DNA of 17,091 nt from a virus, in the IMG/VR virus record IMGVR_UViG_3300047160_030535, positions 1-17,091 of that record, one strand, 5' to 3'. The notes under the pieces were generated by a model. The model did not search any database. It was not told where the DNA came from and was given only the letters and a program-made list of their open reading frames with translations. Every line of letters starts with the position of its first letter. Position 1 is the stretch's first letter. This document shows positions 19-13,339 of this stretch, piece after piece. The translations under genes were made by a program, and so were the position numbers.

Positions 19-95
19 TGCGGGGTGGAGCAGTCTGGCAGCTCGTCGGGCTCATAACCCGAAGGTCGCAGGTTCAAATCCTGCCCCCGCTACCA
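19..95 (+). tRNA. Initiator tRNA-Met (tRNA-fMet), anticodon CAT at 53-55, CCA encoded
   Basis: 77-nt cloverleaf read by eye. Acceptor TGCGGGG/CCCCGCT, D arm GAGC-AGTCTGGCA-GCTC, T arm GCAGG-TTCAAAT-CCTGC, then A-CCA. Anticodon stem TCGGG/CCCGA has three consecutive G:C pairs next to loop CTCATAA. Layout and most bases match E. coli tRNA-fMet as I remember it. Positions 1:72 are T.T, and an unpaired 1:72 is the initiator hallmark. Confidence 0.9.
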
Positions 96-3389: not shown

Positions 3390-3496
3390 GCCGATGGCCC
3401 TCCCCGCCCACCTGCAGCGCTACAGCGGCTTGATCGACCTCGTAGTCGAGGCGCTGGTGCGCGAGGCGCAGGGGGGAGCGGAGACCGAAAGAGAAA

Positions 3497-3526
3497 CGCC
3501 CGGCCGGGGACGAATCCGGCCGGGCG
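3497..3526 (+). terminator. Strong GC hairpin (11-bp stem, 8-nt loop) between the HTH gene and the replication-like operon
   Basis: CGCCCGGCCGG-GGACGAAT-CCGGCCGGGCG. It is followed only by a weak T-containing tract (CTATTC), so it may be a terminator or an attenuator. Confidence 0.4.
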
Positions 3527-3547
3527 CTATTCAGGCATCGAGAGGTA

Positions 3548-3832
3548 TTGACGATGACGAGTCTACAACCCCTGCGCCTCGCGCACAAAACTGAGGCGCA
3601 GAGCGCCGCCTCGCGTCGCAGACTTTGCACGGGCTGCCGCCACTTCGCCGCCGCTGCCGACATCACCGTCGTCAACTACGTACACGAGGTCGCGCCCTGC
3701 GCCTGGCGACTGGCCGTGCTGCGGTATTGCCCTCAATGCATTCGCATCTGGAACCGGCTGGAGCTCGCCGTCTGCCTGCGCGCCTTCCGCGCGCGACCTG
3801 CGCTGCGAGTGATCCCGGGAGGGCGGAGGTGA
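3548..3832 (+). CDS. Cys-rich small protein, 94 aa (putative zinc-binding)
   Basis: GAGAGG upstream of the ATG. High GC3. CTGC...C...CPQC arrangement. Its TGA overlaps the GTG of the next gene (GTGA). Confidence 0.55.
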   Translation: MTMTSLQPLRLAHKTEAQSAASRRRLCTGCRHFAAAADITVVNYVHEVAPCAWRLAVLRYCPQCIRIWNRLELAVCLRAFRARPALRVIPGGRR

Positions 3833-4140
3833 CCGCGGAAACTGCCAGCACGCCCAGCCTCGCCCACCTGCAGCGTGAGGCGCGCGAGATCATCGAGCGC
3901 GTCGACCGCGAGGCAGAAGAACTCCGCCAGCAGCTCGCTCGAGGTGTCCGCGAACGCGTGCCGCCCGCGGGGCTCTTATTGCGAACCGCTGCGGCACTTG
4001 GCGCCTGCGGCATCAACCATCGCGCGATGCTCGCGGCGCTCCGTGAGATTAATCAGGATTGCTTCCCAACACTCGATGGCGATGAGTTGGAGGAGATCGC
4101 GGTCGCTTTCACGTGTGATTCCAACGGGGAAGCAGCGTGA
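3829..4140 (+). CDS. Hypothetical protein, 103 aa
   Basis: Start placed at GTG 3829 (GGGAGGGCGGAG just upstream, GTGA overlap). The longer ORF from 3625 has an Arg-rich off-frame-looking N-terminus that overlaps the better-looking 3548 CDS. Helical, Glu/Arg-rich sequence. Confidence 0.5.
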   Translation: MTAETASTPSLAHLQREAREIIERVDREAEELRQQLARGVRERVPPAGLLLRTAAALGACGINHRAMLAALREINQDCFPTLDGDELEEIAVAFTCDSNGEAA

Positions 4141-5387
4141 CCGCCCAACTCGATGCGAGCGGAGGTGCAGCACTGCTCGATGAGTTGGAGAGCTTTCTCG
4201 CACGCTTCGTGGCGTATCCATCGCAGGACGCACGGATCGCTCACGCACTGTGGCTCGCGCACACGCATGCCATGGAGGCCTGGGAAAGCACGCCACGACT
4301 CGCGTTCCTCTCTCCAGAGCCCGGCAGCGGCAAGACCCGCGCGATCGAAGTATCGGAACTGCTGGTGCCGCGCCCAGTCGAGGCGATCAATGCAACTCCT
4401 GCCTATCTTTTCCGTAAGGTTGCGGACCCTGATGGTCTGCCCACGATCTTGTTCGACGAGATCGACACGCTCTTCGGTCCGCGCGCGAAGGAAAACGAAG
4501 AAATCCGCGGTGTGTTGAATGCCGGACATCGACGCGGAGCCATGGCTGGCCGCTGTGTCGTCAAAGGCAAGACCGTGATCACCGAGGAGCTCCCCGCCTA
4601 CTGCGCGGTGGCGCTCGCAGGCCTCGGCAATCTCCCCGATACCATCCTCACGCGCAGCATCGTGATCAGGATGCGCAAGCGCTCCCCCACTGAAATTATC
4701 GAAGGCTACCGGCGACGCCAGCACGCCCCCGAGGGGCACGCGCTGAGAGACCGCCTGGCCACGTGGATGCAAGCCAGGAGCCCCGAACTGAGCGATACGA
4801 GGCCCGCAATGCCAGAAGGCATCACCGATCGCGCTGCCGACGTATGGGAGTCACTACTCGCGATCGCTGATGCCGCAAGCGGCCACTGGCCTGAACGCGC
4901 ACGCGTTACCGCCGTTACCCTTGTTACCGATGCTAAGGCAGCCAGTCCCAGCCTTGGCGTACGCCTCCTCGCTGACCTCCGAACGGTCTTCGCGGGCGCC
5001 CCCGGCCTGCCCACGACTGAGATACTCCGGCGGCTGGCCGAGCTTGAGGATTCCCCCTGGGGTGACCTCAAGGGGAAGCCGCTCGACGCGCGTCGCTTGG
5101 CAAGTCTCCTCCGTCAGTACGAGGTGGAGCGCACAACGTTCCGTATCGGTAACGAAACAGCCAAGGGATACACCTCCGTTACCCTCCACGACGCATGGGC
5201 TAGGTACGTCAACCTTCCTAATAAAGGTAACAAAGGTAACGGAGGTGAGAGTGAGGGCGTAGGAGTGGCTACCAATGGATCGGTAACAGCGGTAACGCCG
5301 GTAACGGCAGGGTGTCGCCGCTGCGGTGGCGAAGGCTGCGAATGGTGTCGGCCCAAAGAGGCGCATCAGAGTGATATCCCGTTCTAG
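4137..5387 (+). CDS. DUF3631-like P-loop ATPase, 416 aa (replication-associated protein of integrative elements/phages)
   Basis: Walker A EPGSGKT, Walker B TILFDEID. The overall order of motifs is as I recall for DUF3631 proteins. C-terminal CRRCGGEGCEWC cluster. GTG start in a GTGA overlap with the previous gene. Confidence 0.75.
   Translation: MTAQLDASGGAALLDELESFLARFVAYPSQDARIAHALWLAHTHAMEAWESTPRLAFLSPEPGSGKTRAIEVSELLVPRPVEAINATPAYLFRKVADPDGLPTILFDEIDTLFGPRAKENEEIRGVLNAGHRRGAMAGRCVVKGKTVITEELPAYCAVALAGLGNLPDTILTRSIVIRMRKRSPTEIIEGYRRRQHAPEGHALRDRLATWMQARSPELSDTRPAMPEGITDRAADVWESLLAIADAASGHWPERARVTAVTLVTDAKAASPSLGVRLLADLRTVFAGAPGLPTTEILRRLAELEDSPWGDLKGKPLDARRLASLLRQYEVERTTFRIGNETAKGYTSVTLHDAWARYVNLPNKGNKGNGGESEGVGVATNGSVTAVTPVTAGCRRCGGEGCEWCRPKEAHQSDIPF
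4905..5305. repeat. Iteron-like array: 10 copies of GGTAAC/GTTACC, three clusters on a 9-bp register
   Basis: GTTACC at 4905, 4914, 4923. GGTAAC at 5148. GTTACC at 5178. GGTAAC at 5226, 5235. GGTAAC at 5282, 5291, 5300. An AT-rich patch TTCCTAATAAAGGTAACAAAGGTAAC lies at about 5215-5240. All copies are inside the DUF3631-like CDS. Confidence 0.7.
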
Positions 5388-5445
5388 GCACCGGCACCCG
5401 CGCTTGCCGTCCGGGTCCGGAGTTTGGTGGCCGTGCGCTGAGGTG

Positions 5446-5463
5446 CCGCGCGTCATCGCGCGG
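5446..5463 (+). terminator. Hairpin CCGCGCG-TCAT-CGCGCGG downstream of the DUF3631-like gene
   Basis: Perfect 7-bp GC stem, 4-nt loop, about 60 nt after the stop. The downstream tract TTGCGGTTGCTTC is only weakly T-rich. Confidence 0.3.
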
Positions 5464-5478
5464 TTGCGGTTGCTTCTA

Positions 5479-5510
5479 ACTTTCCCTATTCTTGTAAGAA
5501 TTGGGAAAGT
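5479..5510. other. 32-bp near-perfect palindrome with lox/FRT-like layout (12-bp arm, 8-bp spacer, 12-bp arm); candidate tyrosine-recombinase site
   Basis: ACTTTCCCTATT-CTTGTAAG-AATTGGGAAAGT. The arms match 11/12 as inverted repeats. It is AT-rich in a GC-rich background and sits 15 nt upstream of the recombinase ATG. A third arm-like copy, AAATGGGAAAGT, lies at 5578-5589 in the same orientation as the right arm. Confidence 0.55.
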
Positions 5511-5524
5511 CGATAGAGGCCACC

Positions 5525-6160
5525 ATGAGCAACGTCATAGCCTTACGCGCAGCGCGCACCCCCTCGCCGACAACAGAAAATGGGAAAGTTCCGCCGAAGC
5601 GGCGCAAGGACGCCAGGCCGCGGAAGCATCTGACGCCTGCGGAGGTAGCGGCGCTCCTGCGAGCGGCGCGGAAGTCGGGGCGCTACGGGCTGCGCGACGA
5701 GGTGGCGGTGCTACTTGCCTACCGGCACGGCCTCCGGGCCTCGGAGCTCGTCGCACTCGAGTGGTCGGCAATCGACTTCAAGGGCGGCACGATCGCGATC
5801 CGGCGCGCCAAGGGCGGCATGACGACCGAGCACCCGCTTCGCTCCGTCGAGTTGCGCATCCTCGGGAAACTGCGTCGGGAGCAGCCGGAGACGCGCTACG
5901 TGCTCATGAGCGAGCGCGGCACGCCGTGGAGCACGAGCAACTTCCGCAAGGTGCTGCAGCGGCTCGCCGAGGCTGCAGGGCCGGCGATCGCTGTCACCGT
6001 CAACCCGCATGCGCTGCGTCACGCCTGCGGCTTCTATCTCGCCGGCAAGGGTGTCGACACCCGGGCGCTCAGTCACTACCTCGGCCACCGCAGCCTGCAG
6101 AGCACCGAGCGCTACACCGCGCAGAGCGCTCATCGCTTCCGGGACTTCTGGCGCGACTGA
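5525..6160 (+). CDS. Small tyrosine recombinase, 211 aa (catalytic domain only; FimB/FimE / small Xer-Cre size class)
   Basis: Tyrosine-recombinase signature: LLAYRHGLRASE (Arg I), HALRH (His/Arg II), LGHRS, ERYT (catalytic Tyr). There is no arm-binding or long N-terminal domain. AGAGG lies 5 nt upstream of ATG 5525. The TTG at 5501 given by the ORF track falls inside the palindrome and is less likely. Confidence 0.85.
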   Translation: MSNVIALRAARTPSPTTENGKVPPKRRKDARPRKHLTPAEVAALLRAARKSGRYGLRDEVAVLLAYRHGLRASELVALEWSAIDFKGGTIAIRRAKGGMTTEHPLRSVELRILGKLRREQPETRYVLMSERGTPWSTSNFRKVLQRLAEAAGPAIAVTVNPHALRHACGFYLAGKGVDTRALSHYLGHRSLQSTERYTAQSAHRFRDFWRD

Positions 6161-6303
6161 TAAGCAGCAGCTGCTGCAGCTGCAGCAGTACTACTACCAA
6201 TAGATGCACCGAGGCCTGCGACAGATACTCCGGTCACCATCAGGGAGGCCACGAACATCACCATGATCATGATGATCATGATGATCACGACCACCATGGT
6301 CAT
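6130..6303 (-). CDS. Possible small hydrophobic peptide, 57 aa (speculative)
   Basis: MTMVVVIIMIIMIMVMFVASLMVTGVSVAGLGASIGSSTAAAAAAAAYQSRQKSRKR: one very hydrophobic segment, poly-Ala, and a basic tail. No convincing SD. The second half has low GC3. The 3' end overlaps the tyrosine recombinase stop region in antisense. Confidence 0.25.
   Translation of the reverse strand: MTMVVVIIMIIMIMVMFVASLMVTGVSVAGLGASIGSSTAAAAAAAAYQSRQKSRKR
6263..6289. repeat. Tandem 9-bp repeat ATGATCATG x2 plus ATGATCACG, giving three GATC sites 9 bp apart
   Basis: Read directly: ATGATCATG ATGATCATG ATGATCACG. It is embedded in a locally AT-richer, low-complexity segment (6160-6350). Confidence 0.8.
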
Positions 6304-6350
6304 GACGACCACGACCAGGGTGGCTCGGGGGCGAGAGATGTAAGGCGACG

Positions 6351-6641
6351 CTACGCCGCCAGAGCCTTCAGCACGTGGTCCGGATCCTTCTTGATCGCCT
6401 TCAGGAGAGCCTTGGCGGGCCCGGTGGGCTCGCGCAGGCCCTGCTCCCAATTACGCAGCGTGCCGACGTTCACGTGCATCAGGGCGGCGAACTTGGGCTG
6501 GCTCAAGCCGGTCTCCGCCCGCAGCGCCTTGATGGCCACAGCGTCGATGCTGAACTCGCGGGACGGCGCCCGCTCGCCGCGGGCGATTTCGCCCATCTGC
6601 GTCACGCTCTCAACCAGGTCAGCAAACAGCTTTTTGTTCAC
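6351..6641 (-). CDS. higA: HigA-2-like XRE-family antitoxin, 96 aa
   Basis: IKALRAETGLSQPKFAALMHVNVGTLRNWEQGLREPTGPAKALLKAI matches the XRE HTH plus the WEQG.R.PtGpA.aLL signature of HigA-2-type antitoxins. GTG start with GAGAGG upstream. It lies 10 nt downstream of the toxin gene. Confidence 0.8.
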   Translation of the reverse strand: MNKKLFADLVESVTQMGEIARGERAPSREFSIDAVAIKALRAETGLSQPKFAALMHVNVGTLRNWEQGLREPTGPAKALLKAIKKDPDHVLKALAA

Positions 6642-6651
6642 GGCACACCTC

Positions 6652-6963
6652 TCACCAATCCTGCACGAGCCTACGGAGAACCTTCTTTTCTGCTGCGCTC
6701 AGATCGTCTTTCACACCCTTGCTGTAGATCGCCAACAAGCGCACCTGCGATGCCGCGGTGAGGTAGAAGTAGATCACTCGTACGCCGCCGCTCTTGCCAC
6801 CGCCTGGGACCGCCCAGCGCACCTTGCGCAACCCGCCGGTGCCTTGGATGACTGGCCCGGCCTGCGGGCGGAGCGCCAGAAACCACTGAAACTCCGAATA
6901 AGCTTCATCGCTAAGCAGCTCCTTCACCTGCCGGGTGAAGACTGGCGTCTCGATGAAGACCAT
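6652..6963 (-). CDS. higB: HigB-2-like RelE/ParE-superfamily toxin, 103 aa
   Basis: GPVIQGTGGLRKVRWAVPGGGKSGGVRVIYFYL...LLAIYSKGVKDDLSAAEKKVL matches the conserved GtGGlRKlR...GKrGG.RviY...iY.K...dL core of HigB-2-type toxins. Toxin-first gene order is typical of hig loci. Confidence 0.8.
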   Translation of the reverse strand: MVFIETPVFTRQVKELLSDEAYSEFQWFLALRPQAGPVIQGTGGLRKVRWAVPGGGKSGGVRVIYFYLTAASQVRLLAIYSKGVKDDLSAAEKKVLRRLVQDW

Positions 6964-6972
6964 GCGGCATGG

Positions 6973-7004
6973 TACACCAATGGTGTAGATACATCAATGG
7001 TGTA
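6973..7004. promoter_or_regulatory. Tandem palindromic operators in the higB / 77-aa-gene divergent intergenic region
   Basis: TACACCAATGGTGTA (6973-6987) and TACATCAATGGTGTA (6990-7004), 17-bp period. Each has 6-bp arms TACA(C/T)C/GGTGTA. They are flanked by ATGCGGC...GCCGCAT symmetry around the two divergent start codons. Confidence 0.6.
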
Positions 7005-7334: not shown

Positions 7335-7955
7335 ATGCCCGGCCAAGGTGGTAACCCGCACGTTCAATGCTCTATCTGCCGGCACGCGGAGCGGCCGCGT
7401 ATGGAGCTATTGCTGGTGAGCGGGGCTGCGGCGAGCGCTGTGGGGCGCAAGTTCAGTGTGAGCCCCCATGCCCTGGGACGGCACTTGCGGGCCCACGTAA
7501 GCCAGGAGAGGCGAGCGCAGCTGATTGCCGGCCCGATCAAGCTGCACGAGCTCGCCGAGCGTGCCGCTGAGTCCGATCTCTCGCTGCGCGACTATCTGGC
7601 GCTCGTGCGCTCCACGGTGCTCGCGCAGATGCTGGCGGCCGCTGAGGCGAGTGACCGGCAGGGGGTGGCGCTTCTCGCCGGGCGGGTGACGGAATGCCTG
7701 CGGCTCGAGGCACAGGTGAACGACGAACTGCGGCCGGTACTCTCGCAGGTCAACAACAACACGGTCATCAACAACTTCTACGCGTCGCCCGAGTTTGCGC
7801 AGTTCATGGATGACCTGGTGCGCGCCCTCGGCCCATTCCCGGAGGCTCGCGAGGCCGTGCTTGCAGTGTTCGAGCGCCGCCTCGCGCCCGCCGCGCAACA
7901 CCCTGCCCTGGAGCATCAGCCCGATGTCAAAGAAACCGCCGCAGCCGCCGTCTGA
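7335..7955 (+). CDS. Putative terminase small subunit, 206 aa (N-terminal Zn-finger + HTH)
   Basis: AGGAG lies 9 nt upstream of ATG 7335; the alternative ATGs at 7281/7284 lack an SD. CSICRH...GRKFSVSPHALGRHLRAH is a C-x2-C plus HTH N-terminus that I recall from small terminase-like phage proteins. The gene lies immediately upstream of TerL and overlaps it by 32 nt. Confidence 0.55.
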   Translation: MPGQGGNPHVQCSICRHAERPRMELLLVSGAAASAVGRKFSVSPHALGRHLRAHVSQERRAQLIAGPIKLHELAERAAESDLSLRDYLALVRSTVLAQMLAAAEASDRQGVALLAGRVTECLRLEAQVNDELRPVLSQVNNNTVINNFYASPEFAQFMDDLVRALGPFPEAREAVLAVFERRLAPAAQHPALEHQPDVKETAAAAV

Positions 7956-10128
7956 GCCCCCGGCGGCGAAGCCGCACCGCGCTTTTGTCGAGGCGTTGCG
8001 CGGCGCGTGGCGCCGTCAGGCGCGTCCCGAGCAGCTCGCACCGCCTGGTGCGTGGACTACGTGGGTGTTCAACGGCGGCCGCGGCAGCGGCAAGACGCGC
8101 AGCGGCGCCGAGTGGGTGCAGGAGCGCGTAGCCGGCGGCGAGAGGTACGTGCACCTGGTCGCGCCTACCGCGGCCGACGTGCGCGACGTCATGCTCGAAG
8201 GGCCGGCGGGCATTCTCAGTATCGCAGCGCCGCACATGCGCCCCATCTATCAGCCGAGCTTGCGCAAGCTCGTTTGGCCCAACGGTGCGCAGGGATTGCT
8301 GTTCAGCGCCGATGAGCCCGACCGATTGCGCGGCCCACAGTGCGGCACGCTCTGGATTGATGAGCTTTGCGCCATGCGTACGGCGCAGGACGTGCTCGAC
8401 AACGCCTACTTCGGGCTGCGCCTCGGCAAGGACCCGCGCTGCCTGATAACTACCACCCCGAGGCCGCTCAAGCCATTCAAGGCGCTGCTCGCGCGCGACG
8501 GCCAGGACGTTGTGGTGACGCGCTCGTCGAGCTACGCGAACCGCGACAACCTGGCGCCGTCATTCTTCGCGCAGATCGTCGCCAAGTACGCAGGGACGCG
8601 TCTACACGCGCAGGAGGTGGAGGCGCAGCTGCTCACGGACACGCCCGGCGCGCTCTGGCATCTCGATCGCATCGAGGAGTTGCGCGTGCGCGTCGCGCCG
8701 CAGCCATTCGAGCGCGTTGTCGTGGCGATCGATCCAGCCGTGACTTTCGGTCCCGACAGTGACGAGACGGGCATCGTGGTAGTCGCGCTCGCCGCGGATG
8801 GCACGGCGTACGTGCTCGATGATCTCAGCGGCCGTTATCCGCCCGAGGAATGGGCGCGCCGCGCGATTCAAGCCTACAGGGTGCACGCCGCCGATCGTAT
8901 CGTCGCCGAGATCAACAACGGCGGTGCGTTGGTTGAGAGCACGCTGCGCAGCGTCGACCCCGGGATTCCGTACACCGCGGTGCACGCGAGTCGCGGCAAG
9001 CTGACGCGCGCCGAGCCAGTCAGCGCGCTCTATGAGCAGGGGCGTGTGCATCACGTCGGCGTGTTCGGGCCGCTCGAGGATCAACTCACGAGTTATGACG
9101 GCAGTCGAAACGGCGCGAGTCCCGATCGGCTGGACGCGCTGTGCTGGGCGATCACCGAGCTCATGCTTGGCGAACCCCCGGGCCGCTTCATCCGCGCCGA
9201 GGCGCTGCTGCGCACGGATTCAGCGGGCGTACCGGCTCCCGTAGACATGCCCGACCAGGTGGAGCGTGTGTTCGCCTTCGCGGCCATCGTTGAGAGCGAA
9301 GCCGATGCGCTCGGCACGGTGTTTTTTGCCGTGGCGCCGGGCAGCCCGCGGGTGGTGGTCGCGGGCTGGGATATTCAGGCCCTCGAGCAGTCAACGCTTG
9401 ACACATATTTCCCAGCGGTGGCCGAGCGCCTGCAGGAGCTCGCCGCGCTCACCGGCAGTAGTCCGCTGCGTGCGCGGCTGATCGTCGAGCCAGCGGGGCT
9501 CGGCGCGGTGCTGCTCGAGCAAGGCCAGCTGCGGCGCTACAACGTTGCGGCGCTCGTCGACAAGGGTCTACTCGAGAAGGATCTGACGGCACGCGTGATC
9601 GAGGTCGGCAACTACCTGGCGGCTGGCGGAATCAAGCTGCTTGCGCGAGCACACGAGGAAACGCAGACGTTCAAGGGAGTGAATCGCAATCATCTGACGG
9701 CAGCGCTCGCCGCATTCAGGCTCGGCGACGCCGACAAGAAGATTGGTCCGCTGCTCGCGGCCTTCGCGACGGGCGCACTCGATGTATTGAACACGAACCC
9801 CGCTCTGAATACGTGGTTGCGGTTGGCGGACCGGTGGGGACTTACGAATCGTGCGCCCGCCGAGGGCGGGAAGCTCGCGAATGTCATGGCACCGCCCCCT
9901 GCGGCGCGCCCTGCGCCGGCCGCGGCGCCGCCCGTGCATCCCGAGGTCGCCAAGCTCATGGGGCCGCTGCTGTACGCGGGCTGCAACGTCGCGGCTATCA
10001 GGCGGCAAGCCGAGCAGACGCTGCGCAAGCGCTGCGAGATCGCGGTGAGTATCGAGCGCCAGGCGGGTCGCCACGCGGCTGCCGATGCGTTGATCGCCGA
10101 GCTGGCCGCCACTGGGCTCACCCCATGA
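7924..10128 (+). CDS. Terminase large subunit, 734 aa, with an unusual ~315-aa C-terminal extension
   Basis: Walker A GGRGSGKT and Walker B-like TLWIDE. Nuclease-domain motifs VVVAIDPA, IVAEINNGGALVES, SPDRLDALCWAITEL. This core ends near nt 9180, but the ORF continues to 10128. Start set at ATG 7924 (MSKKPPQPP). Confidence 0.9.
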   Translation: MSKKPPQPPSEPPAAKPHRAFVEALRGAWRRQARPEQLAPPGAWTTWVFNGGRGSGKTRSGAEWVQERVAGGERYVHLVAPTAADVRDVMLEGPAGILSIAAPHMRPIYQPSLRKLVWPNGAQGLLFSADEPDRLRGPQCGTLWIDELCAMRTAQDVLDNAYFGLRLGKDPRCLITTTPRPLKPFKALLARDGQDVVVTRSSSYANRDNLAPSFFAQIVAKYAGTRLHAQEVEAQLLTDTPGALWHLDRIEELRVRVAPQPFERVVVAIDPAVTFGPDSDETGIVVVALAADGTAYVLDDLSGRYPPEEWARRAIQAYRVHAADRIVAEINNGGALVESTLRSVDPGIPYTAVHASRGKLTRAEPVSALYEQGRVHHVGVFGPLEDQLTSYDGSRNGASPDRLDALCWAITELMLGEPPGRFIRAEALLRTDSAGVPAPVDMPDQVERVFAFAAIVESEADALGTVFFAVAPGSPRVVVAGWDIQALEQSTLDTYFPAVAERLQELAALTGSSPLRARLIVEPAGLGAVLLEQGQLRRYNVAALVDKGLLEKDLTARVIEVGNYLAAGGIKLLARAHEETQTFKGVNRNHLTAALAAFRLGDADKKIGPLLAAFATGALDVLNTNPALNTWLRLADRWGLTNRAPAEGGKLANVMAPPPAARPAPAAAPPVHPEVAKLMGPLLYAGCNVAAIRRQAEQTLRKRCEIAVSIERQAGRHAAADALIAELAATGLTP

Positions 10129-12067: not shown

Positions 12068-12320
12068 GTTGCAGCACGACGAACTCGTCGCGGCGGCTAT
12101 GGCGCTGCCCACGCCGGCGCACTGTGCGGGCTGCGGCCGCGCGTTTCGCGATGAGGTGATCTGGCGGCGCGTCGAGGAGATGATGTTGGGGCCGGTCGTG
12201 ATCGCGCTTTGCGAGCCATGCAATCAGCGAATCCCTCGCGGGAGCCTGGCAGAGCTGCCGTTGATAGCGAAGGCTGAGGGCGAGGTGCTCGCGGCCTTGA
12301 TTGCGCAAGGCCACGCATAA
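12060..12320 (+). CDS. Small CxxC...CxxC zinc-ribbon protein, about 86 aa (start uncertain: GTG 12060 or ATG 12099)
   Basis: HCAGCGRAF...CEPCNQ. The TAATG stop/start overlap with the next gene suggests translational coupling. Confidence 0.45.
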   Translation: MRRLQHDELVAAAMALPTPAHCAGCGRAFRDEVIWRRVEEMMLGPVVIALCEPCNQRIPRGSLAELPLIAKAEGEVLAALIAQGHA

Positions 12321-13339
12321 TGGCCGCCCAGTACCTCCGCAATCTCAGCCTCATCGTTGCCGATCCCGCGGGCAAAGGCTTGGAGCTTGGCGACCTGCGC
12401 TGTGTGTTCGAGGTGCGGCGCGGCGATCTGCAGACGCCTAACTCGTGCGACGTCAGGGTCTACAATTTAGCTGATGCCACCGCTAATCGACTGCGCACGC
12501 CTGAGTTCACGCAGCTGGAATTGAGAGTTGGGTACGCCGATCAGCAGCTGCAGCTGATTTTCCGCGGCAGCATCCGCCAGGTGCGTAAGGGCCGCGAGGA
12601 TCAGCGCAACTCCTACGTCAGCATCACGGCTGCCGATGGCGACGAAGCCTATAACTTCTCCGTCGCCGCGCTGACGCTCGCCGCGGGCTCGACACCGCAG
12701 AACGCGATCGAGCGGCTGATTCAGCAGATGGCAACTGCCGCGTCGGGTTCACCGACCGGCGGCTCCGGCGGCCAGGTGGTCACGCAGGGTTATCTGCCAG
12801 CGCTGACGACGAACAAGTCCGTGCGCGGGCGCACCTACTTTGGCATGTGTCGCGACGAACTTCGCGAGCTCGCCGAAAACAATGATTGTTTCTGGTCGAT
12901 TCAGGACGGTGCCGTCACATTCATTCCGCAGACGGCTTTCATCCCCGGCACGGCCGTGTTGATCACGCCGTTCACTGGCCTCATCGGCGTGCCCGAGCAG
13001 ACACAAAACGGTCTCGACATGACGGTGCTCATCAACCCGAGCATAAAGATTGGTCAGCTAGTGAAGCTCGACTCATCAGACATCAACAGATTCCGTTACG
13101 GCCTCGACCTGCCAGCGCAGCCCATCAATGTCTTGTTGGCGCAGTCGGTGACCAAACTCAATGCCGACGGCCTTTACTACGTCATGCGCGCCGATCACAC
13201 CGGAGATACGCGCGGCAACACGTGGTACACAAAGTTAGTATGCCTCGCGGTGGACGCCGCCTTCCCGCAGACCGCGGCGCCTCAGGCGGCCATCGCGCCG
13301 CCATTTCCGCCGCCGTTGAACGCAGTGCCAAGGTACTAA
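12320..13339 (+). CDS. Phage tail/baseplate hub-like protein (gpD / gp27 / XkdQ-like N-terminal pattern), 339 aa
   Basis: The N-terminal pattern L.L.V.D..G..L.L..L...FEV......PN.C.V.VYNL...T...L.....LELRVGY.....LIF.G.I......R.......V.I.A.DGDEAY resembles hub/protein-D-type tail proteins as I remember them. The CDS itself is well supported; the functional call is tentative. Confidence 0.5.
   Translation: MAAQYLRNLSLIVADPAGKGLELGDLRCVFEVRRGDLQTPNSCDVRVYNLADATANRLRTPEFTQLELRVGYADQQLQLIFRGSIRQVRKGREDQRNSYVSITAADGDEAYNFSVAALTLAAGSTPQNAIERLIQQMATAASGSPTGGSGGQVVTQGYLPALTTNKSVRGRTYFGMCRDELRELAENNDCFWSIQDGAVTFIPQTAFIPGTAVLITPFTGLIGVPEQTQNGLDMTVLINPSIKIGQLVKLDSSDINRFRYGLDLPAQPINVLLAQSVTKLNADGLYYVMRADHTGDTRGNTWYTKLVCLAVDAAFPQTAAPQAAIAPPFPPPLNAVPRY

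Follow-up and report, generated by a model that had tools for sequence, protein, structure and literature searches.

The system closest to the one described here is that of the actinomycete integrative element pMEA300, whose purified replication initiator RepAM was found in electrophoretic mobility shift assays (EMSA) to bind 8-bp repeats, all identical, inside the sequence that encodes it (te Poele et al. 2006, Microbiology 152:2943; reviewed in PMC2440964). These repeats can form a hairpin and constitute the putative origin, orfA-repAM plus korA suffices for replication, and the location of the repeats may also serve the control of repAM or xis (PMC2440964). A pC194-like CTTGAT motif hinted at a rolling-circle mechanism, with RepAM itself lacking rolling-circle motifs, and in 2008 the RepAM family was thought to be limited to a few actinomycetes (PMC2440964). 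The profile used for this protein is that of DUF3631 (PF12307; PMC3218068). Here we have analysed IMG/VR virus record IMGVR_UViG_3300047160_030535, a 17,091-bp stretch of viral DNA that is called the window in the following, in which a RepAM-type gene of 416 codons contains GGTAAC/GTTACC repeats that had been proposed from the sequence alone to be an intragenic origin of replication (the original prediction). We consider it likely that this array of iterons is indeed the origin of the element, possibly doubling as an autoregulatory site. DUF3631 proteins currently carry the annotations "unknown function" or "DNA primase".

Ten copies of the hexamer are found within 401 bp (4905-5305), where 0.065 would be expected (Poisson P about 3e-19), and eight of them lie on a 9-bp register (Table 1). 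The entire window contains 12 copies on the two strands, compared to 2.75 ± 1.5 in 200 dinucleotide-preserving shuffles, none of which reached 12; the remaining two copies are scattered, and no further iteron-like cluster was found in the window. A reading of 4700-5600 together with the two-strand search reproduced every coordinate and orientation of the original prediction, i.e. three clusters with single copies at 5148 and 5178, and a left cluster (cluster 1) that is inverted relative to the right ones (clusters 2 and 3). Indeed, over 45 nt the two arms (4904-4948 and 5262-5306) show 80% complementarity and, as inverted repeats, are able to pair as a hairpin with a loop of about 310 nt. All ten copies fall in codons 257-390. 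Cluster 1 encodes V257-T258, V260-T261 and V263-T264 within a helix (residues 251-269), and cluster 3 encodes V383-T384, V386-T387 and V389-T390 in a disordered tail; as stated before, GTT ACC and G GTA AC are read as Val-Thr and GGT AAC as Gly-Asn. The valine codons used in the repeats, GTT and GTA, account for 11% and 9% of the 146 valine codons in five window genes outside the repeats, which gives a joint probability of about 1e-7 for this choice. Cluster 3 is the reverse complement of cluster 1 and represents the family-wide "tail" array, while cluster 2, with its Gly-Asn-Lys peptide, lies in an insertion unique to the window in an alignment of 29 sequences, and the solitary copy in the turn of the wing (see below) is specific to the window, its position not being conserved in the family. 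The AT-rich patch of the original prediction is real (GC 0.33 at 5201-5250), but it does not lie cleanly between the clusters, since it abuts and overlaps cluster 2. It is a candidate DNA-unwinding element, although the window has about 13 patches of this kind.

With pMEA300, pMEA100 and pSE211 the window shares a DUF3631/PF12307 initiator, identical short repeats near the 3' end of the initiator's own gene, the inverted and hairpin-capable arrangement of these repeats, a small coupled upstream open reading frame (ORF), a recombinase module downstream and integration at a tRNA gene. It differs from pMEA300 in a core of 6-7 bp rather than 8 bp, in the position of cluster 1, which lies about 350 bp upstream in a folded helical domain and not in one compact hairpin, in lacking a pC194-like CTTGAT motif (none on either strand of 3435-6389), and in its prophage-like surroundings (terminase, baseplate hub, serine integrase), with closest relatives that are environmental and largely non-actinomycete. 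The loop between the arms is also far longer than would be expected for the compact hairpins of the pMEA elements. A further relative is a free 14.3-kb Streptomyces plasmid (locus L211) with the order primase-polymerase, small ORF, DUF3631, xis and int, in which about 12 CCGCTAC/GTAGCGG sites with a GNNAC core run in mixed order and orientation from the tail past the stop codon into the gap before xis, three of them at exactly 9-bp spacing; a free 13.5-kb Streptomyces plasmid carries the module as well. The likeness to pMEA300 and L211 makes the array of the window a member of the known RepAM kind, in a prophage-like and probably non-actinomycete setting and with one arm inside a folded domain. 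The placement of iterons and origin inside the initiator gene is supported by this experimental precedent in the RepAM family (PMC2440964), and for the array of the window itself we regard an origin function as fairly probable.

The supposition that the repeats lie in a gene for a DUF3631-like ATPase was borne out by a full-length-profile match to Pfam PF12307 (residues 178-357, E 1.4e-60), with a P-loop (GSGKT, residues 63-67) and a Walker-B-like motif (DEID, 107-110); cluster 1 lies inside the DUF3631 domain, clusters 2 and 3 in the C-terminal tail. A sequence-profile search against the PDB gave no match, and no PHROG family matched RepAM or the neighbouring small ORFs. The AlphaFold model (mean predicted local distance difference test, pLDDT, 79; predicted template modelling score, pTM, 0.74) comprises a P-loop alpha/beta core, a helical domain that includes helix 251-269, a winged-helix-like module (290-357) and a tail predicted to be disordered (358-416). 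Within the winged-helix-like module a beta-hairpin (333-346, with DSSP strands 333-337 and 340-346) forms the wing. Foldseek related the model to RuvB, ORC/Cdc6, MCM, PriRep1, E5 of monkeypox virus (MPXV) and PrimPol of African swine fever virus (ASFV) at E 3e-5 to 3e-3 and template modelling (TM) scores of 0.2-0.39, and all significant matches were AAA+ or superfamily 3 (SF3) proteins. No HUH (rolling-circle) nuclease was among the Foldseek matches and no Pfam domain of rolling-circle replication was found. The predicted fold, an AAA+/SF3-like ATPase with a winged helix and no rolling-circle nuclease, together with the lack of a nick motif, argues against the rolling-circle mechanism that had been left open in 2006-2008. 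The zinc-ribbon-like motif CxxCxGEGCxWC that follows the iteron tail is kept in some homologs, the remaining ones having other Cys-rich or unrelated tails.

Relatives of this protein are numerous, with 7818 of 8000 scored candidates passing E 1e-3 and the best being 72-74% identical. We compared 210 related genes from 80 genomic, 50 viral (IMG/VR) and 80 metagenomic loci, of which 202 were usable. Judged from the 29-sequence protein alignment, the motifs "RVSAVTLVTDAK" (cluster 1) and "SVTSVT..T" (tail) seem to be conserved, and GGTAAC itself is not enriched in any of the 80 genomic loci. The protein alignment hence seemed to show Val-Thr kept with freely varying codons, which the original prediction had named as the outcome that would speak against it; the DNA of the homologs showed the opposite. 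Each locus repeats a 5-mer of its own with 9-bp spacing at the same two places as the window, and the word in the tail is the reverse complement of the word in cluster 1 of the same locus, so that GTTTC (Val-Ser) in cluster 1 is paired with GAAAC (Glu-Thr) in the tail, GTTGC (Val-Ala) with GCAAC (Ala-Thr), GTGAC with GTCAC, GTGGC with GCCAC, GTAGC with GCTAC, and GTAAC with GTTAC, the last pair occurring in either order. Because the encoded peptides vary with the word (VT/VT, VS/ET, VA/AT, GT/VP) and the reverse-complementarity is retained, the copies in the window are best understood as being under constraint at the level of DNA and not of protein, as had been argued from the window alone.

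The regularity of these arrays was assessed by counting runs of at least three copies of a 5-mer at a fixed period in the 3' 750 bp of 81 genes and elsewhere. For period 9 the density is 1.12 arrays per kb in the 3' regions as against 0.068 per kb elsewhere, and periods of 6, 7, 8, 10, 11, 12 and 15 yielded 0-2 arrays in all. For the relation between the arms, the cluster-1 word was read off solely at the codons that a protein alignment places opposite residues 257, 260 and 263 of the window, and nothing was presupposed about the word in the tail. A locus-specific GTnnC word is repeated at the aligned cluster-1 codons in 123 of 202 homologs, and in 100 of these 123 the tail holds the reverse complement of the locus's own word as a 9-periodic array (permutation null 20.2 ± 4.0, maximum 36); the result recurs in every collection taken separately (41/49 for genomes, 12/16 for viral contigs, 46/57 for metagenomes). 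When the genomic loci were first analysed, the tail of 42 out of 50 had a 9-periodic array reverse-complementary to the word of that locus (permutation null 8.3 ± 2.5), and the matrix of cluster-1 words against tail words is essentially diagonal over seven classes. With all copies oriented alike, the site reads (C/G)GNNAC(A), roughly 7 bp long and repeated 9 bp apart; its flanking bases are the same in both arms in 73-90% of loci, whereas the central bases of the spacer agree in 22-32%, i.e. at chance. A 9-periodic word of GNNAC type is present within or just after the tail in 172 of 201 homologs.

A second, inverted cluster in the tail is found in 42 of 72 loci without a matching cluster 1 but in 21 of 100 with one (Fisher P 1e-6). 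Since the tail holds both orientations mostly where a match in cluster 1 is lacking, the inverted pair of arrays appears to be the conserved unit. The 9-bp period persists where the arrays are untranslated, as in L151, just 3' of the stop codon, and in L211, between genes. Loci with GGNAC/GTNCC words (e.g. GGAAC) never have a matching cluster 1 (0/8), which we attribute to the Val-Pro that GGNAC would require inside helix 251-269, and three loci of this class (L037, L049 and L051) hold both orientations in the tail. The GGNAC class exemplifies a limit that protein coding sets on the DNA sites a folded domain can accommodate. In the tail of L012, a metagenome-assembled genome of the Pseudonocardiaceae, we found a longer repeat, three copies of CCGGAAGGT with an inverted partner of the ACCTTCCGG type, encoding the peptide TEGPEGPEG and containing no GNNAC word; iteron types beyond (C/G)GNNAC(A) therefore exist in the family.

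To find residues that might read the variable bases, each alignment column was scored for the mutual information that it shares with the iteron word over the 100 loci with agreeing arms. Following columns 261 and 264, which are themselves encoded by the site, the top columns are 341, 334, 342, 332 and 343 (z = 19, 14, 11, 9.5 and 8.8; median 1.0), all of them within the wing hairpin. Where position 3 of the iteron is T, residue 341 is Val or Ile (43/52 loci), and where it is A or C, residue 341 is Thr or Ser (43/48); Pro at 342 accompanies GC[A/C]AC in 18 of 18 loci, and Gln at 334 accompanies GAAAC in 11 of 11. The association holds among close relatives: in pairs with at least 75% identity over the N-terminal 250 residues, the class of residue 341 differs in 152 of 154 pairs that are split between T and non-T at position 3, and in 57 of 198 with the same base there. 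An artefact of embedded sites was ruled out as the source of the covariation, as the wing codons do not contain the word, the sole exception being one class in which GGC TAC encodes the invariant G344-Y345. Likewise, exchange of specificity as part of a larger recombining block (cassette swapping) was ruled out since the word class tracks the wing alone: the area under the curve (AUC) for predicting word class from regional similarity is 0.645 for the wing and 0.49-0.55 for every other region of RepAM. As word class is unrelated to these other regions, the switches in specificity look repeated and local and not like inherited blocks. The window fits this scheme, its word being GTAAC and its wing ETAKGY, with T341-A342 as in the GTAAC class.

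Wing residues 334, 341 and 342 covary with the bases at the two variable positions, which points to reading of the site by RepAM itself, and, judging from sequence, it is very probable that RepAM binds the repeats of the window as iterons. We give an even chance to the further proposition that the RepAM family carries a simple initiator-origin code in which two or three variable iteron bases are set by residues 341, 342 and 334 of the wing; such a code seems to have changed on many independent occasions, in at least five phyla of bacteria. In the literature searched, no description of a family-wide covariation of arms and wing or of a wing code was found, and the fixed 9-bp period, the inverted-pair rule, at least seven interchangeable word classes, the wing residue-to-base code and the translational limits on the words appear to be new. 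If true, origin specificity, and hence the incompatibility of co-resident elements, would be predictable from sequence and could be re-engineered with few substitutions.

We therefore propose the following working model, in which binding by the window's own RepAM, firing, melting site, oligomeric geometry and autoregulation are all inferred. The GGTAAC/GTTACC repeats would act as double-stranded iterons for the RepAM-type initiator encoded by the same gene, the wing (residues about 332-343) reading the two central bases that vary. On each cluster, several molecules of RepAM would load next to one another at 9-bp intervals, such that cluster 1 on the one hand and clusters 2 and 3 on the other may position opposed assemblies around the AT-rich patch (about 5201-5250), the segment in which the duplex would be opened. 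A primase, which in relatives is fused to RepAM or encoded nearby and which for the element of the window would probably be that of the host, could then start to replicate the element once it is excised. Given that they are located within repAM and upstream of the gene for the recombinase, occupied sites probably also damp transcription through them.

The strongest competitor, although in our view an unlikely one, is that the sites serve mainly as an operator or roadblock for autoregulation, by which bound RepAM would limit the transcription or translation of repAM or read-through into the recombinase gene, with the origin elsewhere. A role in regulation was suggested by the authors of the pMEA300 study themselves (PMC2440964), and it suits the position of the sites in the window, within repAM and about 115 bp upstream of the tyrosine recombinase gene, as well as the order repAM-xis-int on L211. 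The minimal replicon of pMEA300, however, consists of korA plus orfA-repAM (PMC2440964), so its origin must lie within these segments; moreover, multi-copy inverted arrays beside an AT-rich patch are typical of origins, and the window has no other cluster of the word. A regulatory function is in any case compatible with an origin as a second function of the same sites. A packaging (pac/TerS) or partition (parS-like) site read by another protein of the element had been offered as an alternative in the original prediction, and short repeat arrays are common in such sites; a large terminase subunit is encoded about 2.4 kb downstream of the array (ORF 7795-10128). [quoted passage not shown] Still less credit can be given to selection for Val-Thr peptides, or to recent slippage or duplication without a function at the DNA level: the motifs do look conserved, and T384 and T387 are invariant in the 29 sequences, but the peptides shift with the word while reverse-complementarity is kept, cluster 2 is read in another frame, arrays occur outside ORFs, the codons are rare and the tail is predicted to be disordered. 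This reading is in practice refuted by the DNA of the homologs.

The complementarity of the arms raises a different question, namely whether the functional form is a single-stranded hairpin of clusters 1 and 3, serving as a rolling-circle double-strand origin, a single-strand initiation signal or an mRNA structure. Folded as a single strand, a 421-nt stretch pairs cluster 1 with cluster 3 (z = -4.95), arm-to-arm covariation is expected of a conserved helix too, and hairpins have been described for the pMEA elements (PMC2440964). Yet a helix does not require identical words within one arm, which are present, and would not by itself explain the covariation with the wing; the spacer centres match at chance between the arms, for which reason a continuous RNA or DNA helix was rejected. 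The window furthermore has extra sites of the same orientation in another frame (cluster 2) and solitary copies, the sites of L211 stand in mixed order and orientation, and neither an HUH nuclease fold in RepAM, nor CTTGAT in 3435-6389, nor an Rfam match for the array was found. Since the arms do pair when the stretch is folded, we leave a hairpin-based mechanism, with the helix in segments, a small probability, well below that of a mainly regulatory role.

Several observations weigh against an iteron origin as we propose it. The folding of the arms is one of them, and the covariation would fit any function that involves binding of RepAM equally well. No GNNAC-type array is present in 29 of 201 homologs. 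The AT-rich patch is short, and across the family the AT enrichment of the tail is modest: the tail has a lower GC content than the gene body in 154 of 199 loci, but its 30-bp GC minimum lies under the minimum of the gene body in just 75 of 199. In the window the two arms lie about 350 bp apart, far wider than in classical SF3 origins, which makes the proposed geometry speculative. No primase was recognised in the window by Pfam and PHROG searches, whereas some homologs are fused to Toprim domains (P0016, P0031, P0106) and others have a primase-polymerase gene nearby. Finally, the terminase domains cover just residues 92-454 of the 777 aa encoded by the terminase ORF, and no portal or capsid gene was recognised between it and the baseplate-hub gene (12320-13339); the window looks like a mosaic, possibly degenerate prophage, and the origin may for this reason be a relic.

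Beyond the RepAM elements, comparable origins are known from initiator-helicases. The origins of simian virus 40 (SV40) large T antigen, with its GAGGC pentanucleotides, and of papillomavirus E1 belong to SF3 initiator-helicases and resemble the window in short sites of 5-6 bp, set in opposed groups beside an AT-rich or easily melted segment; their initiators join an origin-binding domain to a ring ATPase, as RepAM may do. They differ in that the module of the window is a C-terminal winged helix and not an N-terminal domain of the T-antigen type, and that its arms are far apart; site layout and fold class fit SF3/AAA+ origins, with low Foldseek TM scores and no link at the sequence level. The alpha protein of phage P4 (ori/crr iterons) and Pri-Rep of the staphylococcal pathogenicity islands (SaPIs; origin 3' of rep) are primase-associated ATPases with a C-terminal winged-helix origin-binding domain. 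Two sets of short iterons around an AT-rich stretch, an origin beside the rep gene and element-specific iterons are common to these systems and the window, but their origin is not within the coding sequence of the initiator, and no sequence similarity to RepAM was detected (PDB, PHROG). Archaeal Orc1/Cdc6 (PDB 2v1u) is likewise an AAA+ protein with a C-terminal winged helix whose wing contacts DNA at inverted sites around an AT-rich unwinding element; its origin recognition boxes, however, are longer than 20 bp and intergenic, and the similarity in fold is remote (E 6e-4, TM 0.23).

The original prediction had drawn the analogy to phage lambda, whose ori lies inside gene O with iterons of about 19 bp in the linker region. 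In plasmid RA3, oriV is placed at the 3' end of repB (PMC9455977). The proposed architecture, an origin within the initiator's own gene where DNA is both code and binding site, is shared with both; the type of protein is not, since RepAM combines an AAA+/SF3-like ATPase with a winged helix and is unrelated in fold to the initiators of these systems, and neither system is known to have the 9-bp period or a two-base specificity code. The array also departs from classical theta-type iteron origins (Rep_3, lambda O) in having sites of about 7 bp at 9-bp intervals and an initiator with a P-loop ATPase, instead of iterons of 17-22 bp set about one helical turn apart and a winged-helix initiator devoid of an ATPase, and agrees with them in the adjacent AT-rich candidate unwinding element at 5201-5250. 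DnaA boxes (TTATCCACA, up to 2 mismatches) are at background in the window (16 matches vs 15.8 expected) with none between 3195 and 6983, although the consensus of the host may differ. Of the marks of pC194-family rolling-circle origins, neither a CTTGAT-type nick site (in 3435-6389) nor an HUH nuclease fold in RepAM was found.

For an otherwise unannotated prophage-like element, these results identify a replication module and a likely origin, and they explain an odd peptide repeat of rare codons as a by-product of DNA sites. An arrangement that had been shown experimentally once, in one actinomycete plasmid, emerges as a rule that holds for most of the 202 usable loci in a family with thousands of members. 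It also offers a concrete residue-to-base code and a natural system in which DNA serves both as the code for a protein and as the binding sites of that protein. The 50 viral contigs that carry the gene (L081-L130), many of them just 8-15 kb long, and the missing PHROG match for the window's RepAM hint at small elements, satellite-like or AICE-like, of which libraries of phage proteins give poor coverage.

Table 1. Position of the repeat array, the RepAM-type gene and neighbouring features in the window.
Feature	Position	Strand	Remarks
tRNA-Met	19-95		Overlaps 3' end of serine integrase gene 74-1705
171-aa ORF	3625..4140	+	Stop overlaps repAM start (GTGA)
repAM-type initiator gene, 416 aa	4137..5387	+	Pfam PF12307, AlphaFold, Foldseek
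Cluster 1	4905..4928	-	GTTACC at 4905, 4914, 4923; three putative iterons, 9-bp spacing
Wing DNA	5130..5171	+	Encodes residues 332-345, RTTFRIGNETAKGY; putative iteron-reading element
Solitary putative iteron GGTAAC	5148..5153	+	Codons G338-N339, turn of wing
Solitary putative iteron	5178..5183	-	GTTACC on plus strand; codons V348-T349
AT-rich patch	5201..5250	none	30-bp GC down to 0.33; lowest 1% of window
Cluster 2	5226..5240	+	GGTAAC at 5226, 5235; 9-bp spacing; other frame (Gly-Asn)
Cluster 3	5282..5305	+	GGTAAC(A/G) at 5282, 5291, 5300; 9-bp spacing
CxxCxGEGCxWC, zinc-ribbon-like C-terminal motif	5313..5348	+	After iteron tail
Tyrosine recombinase gene	5501..6160	+	Pfam PF00589, E 2.9e-35; immediately downstream of repAM

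The overlap of tRNA-Met and serine integrase gene (Table 1) probably marks the attachment-site end of the element. The 171-aa ORF coupled to repAM is placed like orfA of pMEA300 and like the small ORF upstream of DUF3631 on the Streptomyces plasmid NZ_CP108973. It has a weak match to PriCT_1 (E 1.3e-3, below the Pfam cutoff), and its interpretation as a primase remnant was rejected, since no similarity to the N-termini of Toprim-fused homologs was found. Downstream, the succession of repAM and a recombinase gene corresponds to the order repAM-xis-int of AICEs seen on L211, and the tyrosine recombinase gene is a possible target of read-through control by iteron-bound RepAM. The window additionally encodes a RelE-type toxin-antitoxin pair besides the large terminase subunit and the baseplate hub. 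No DNA similarity of the window to GenBank phages was detected, a phage search at the protein level gave two weak matches to Pseudomonas phages and nothing more, and the Rfam search found the tRNA alone.

Just upstream of the replication module lies a perfect 18-bp inverted repeat (3457-3474 and 3569-3586) with arms 94 nt apart, between which a strong terminator-like hairpin is found on the minus strand (3495-3528). In pMEA300, KorA binds a 14-bp inverted repeat upstream of orfA (PMC2440964), and the 18-bp repeat may therefore be a regulatory site of the same kind. A second array with a 9-bp period, made up of ATCATGATG-type units with palindromic TGATCA cores, is located at 6233-6313 between the tyrosine recombinase and HigA-like genes; it is His/Asp-rich in one frame and could be a further array that is bound by protein. 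Two tandem 15-bp palindromes, TACACCAATGGTGTA and TACATCAATGGTGTA, at 6973-7004 immediately upstream of the gene for the RelE/HigB-like toxin (6652-6963, minus strand) probably represent a toxin-antitoxin operator.

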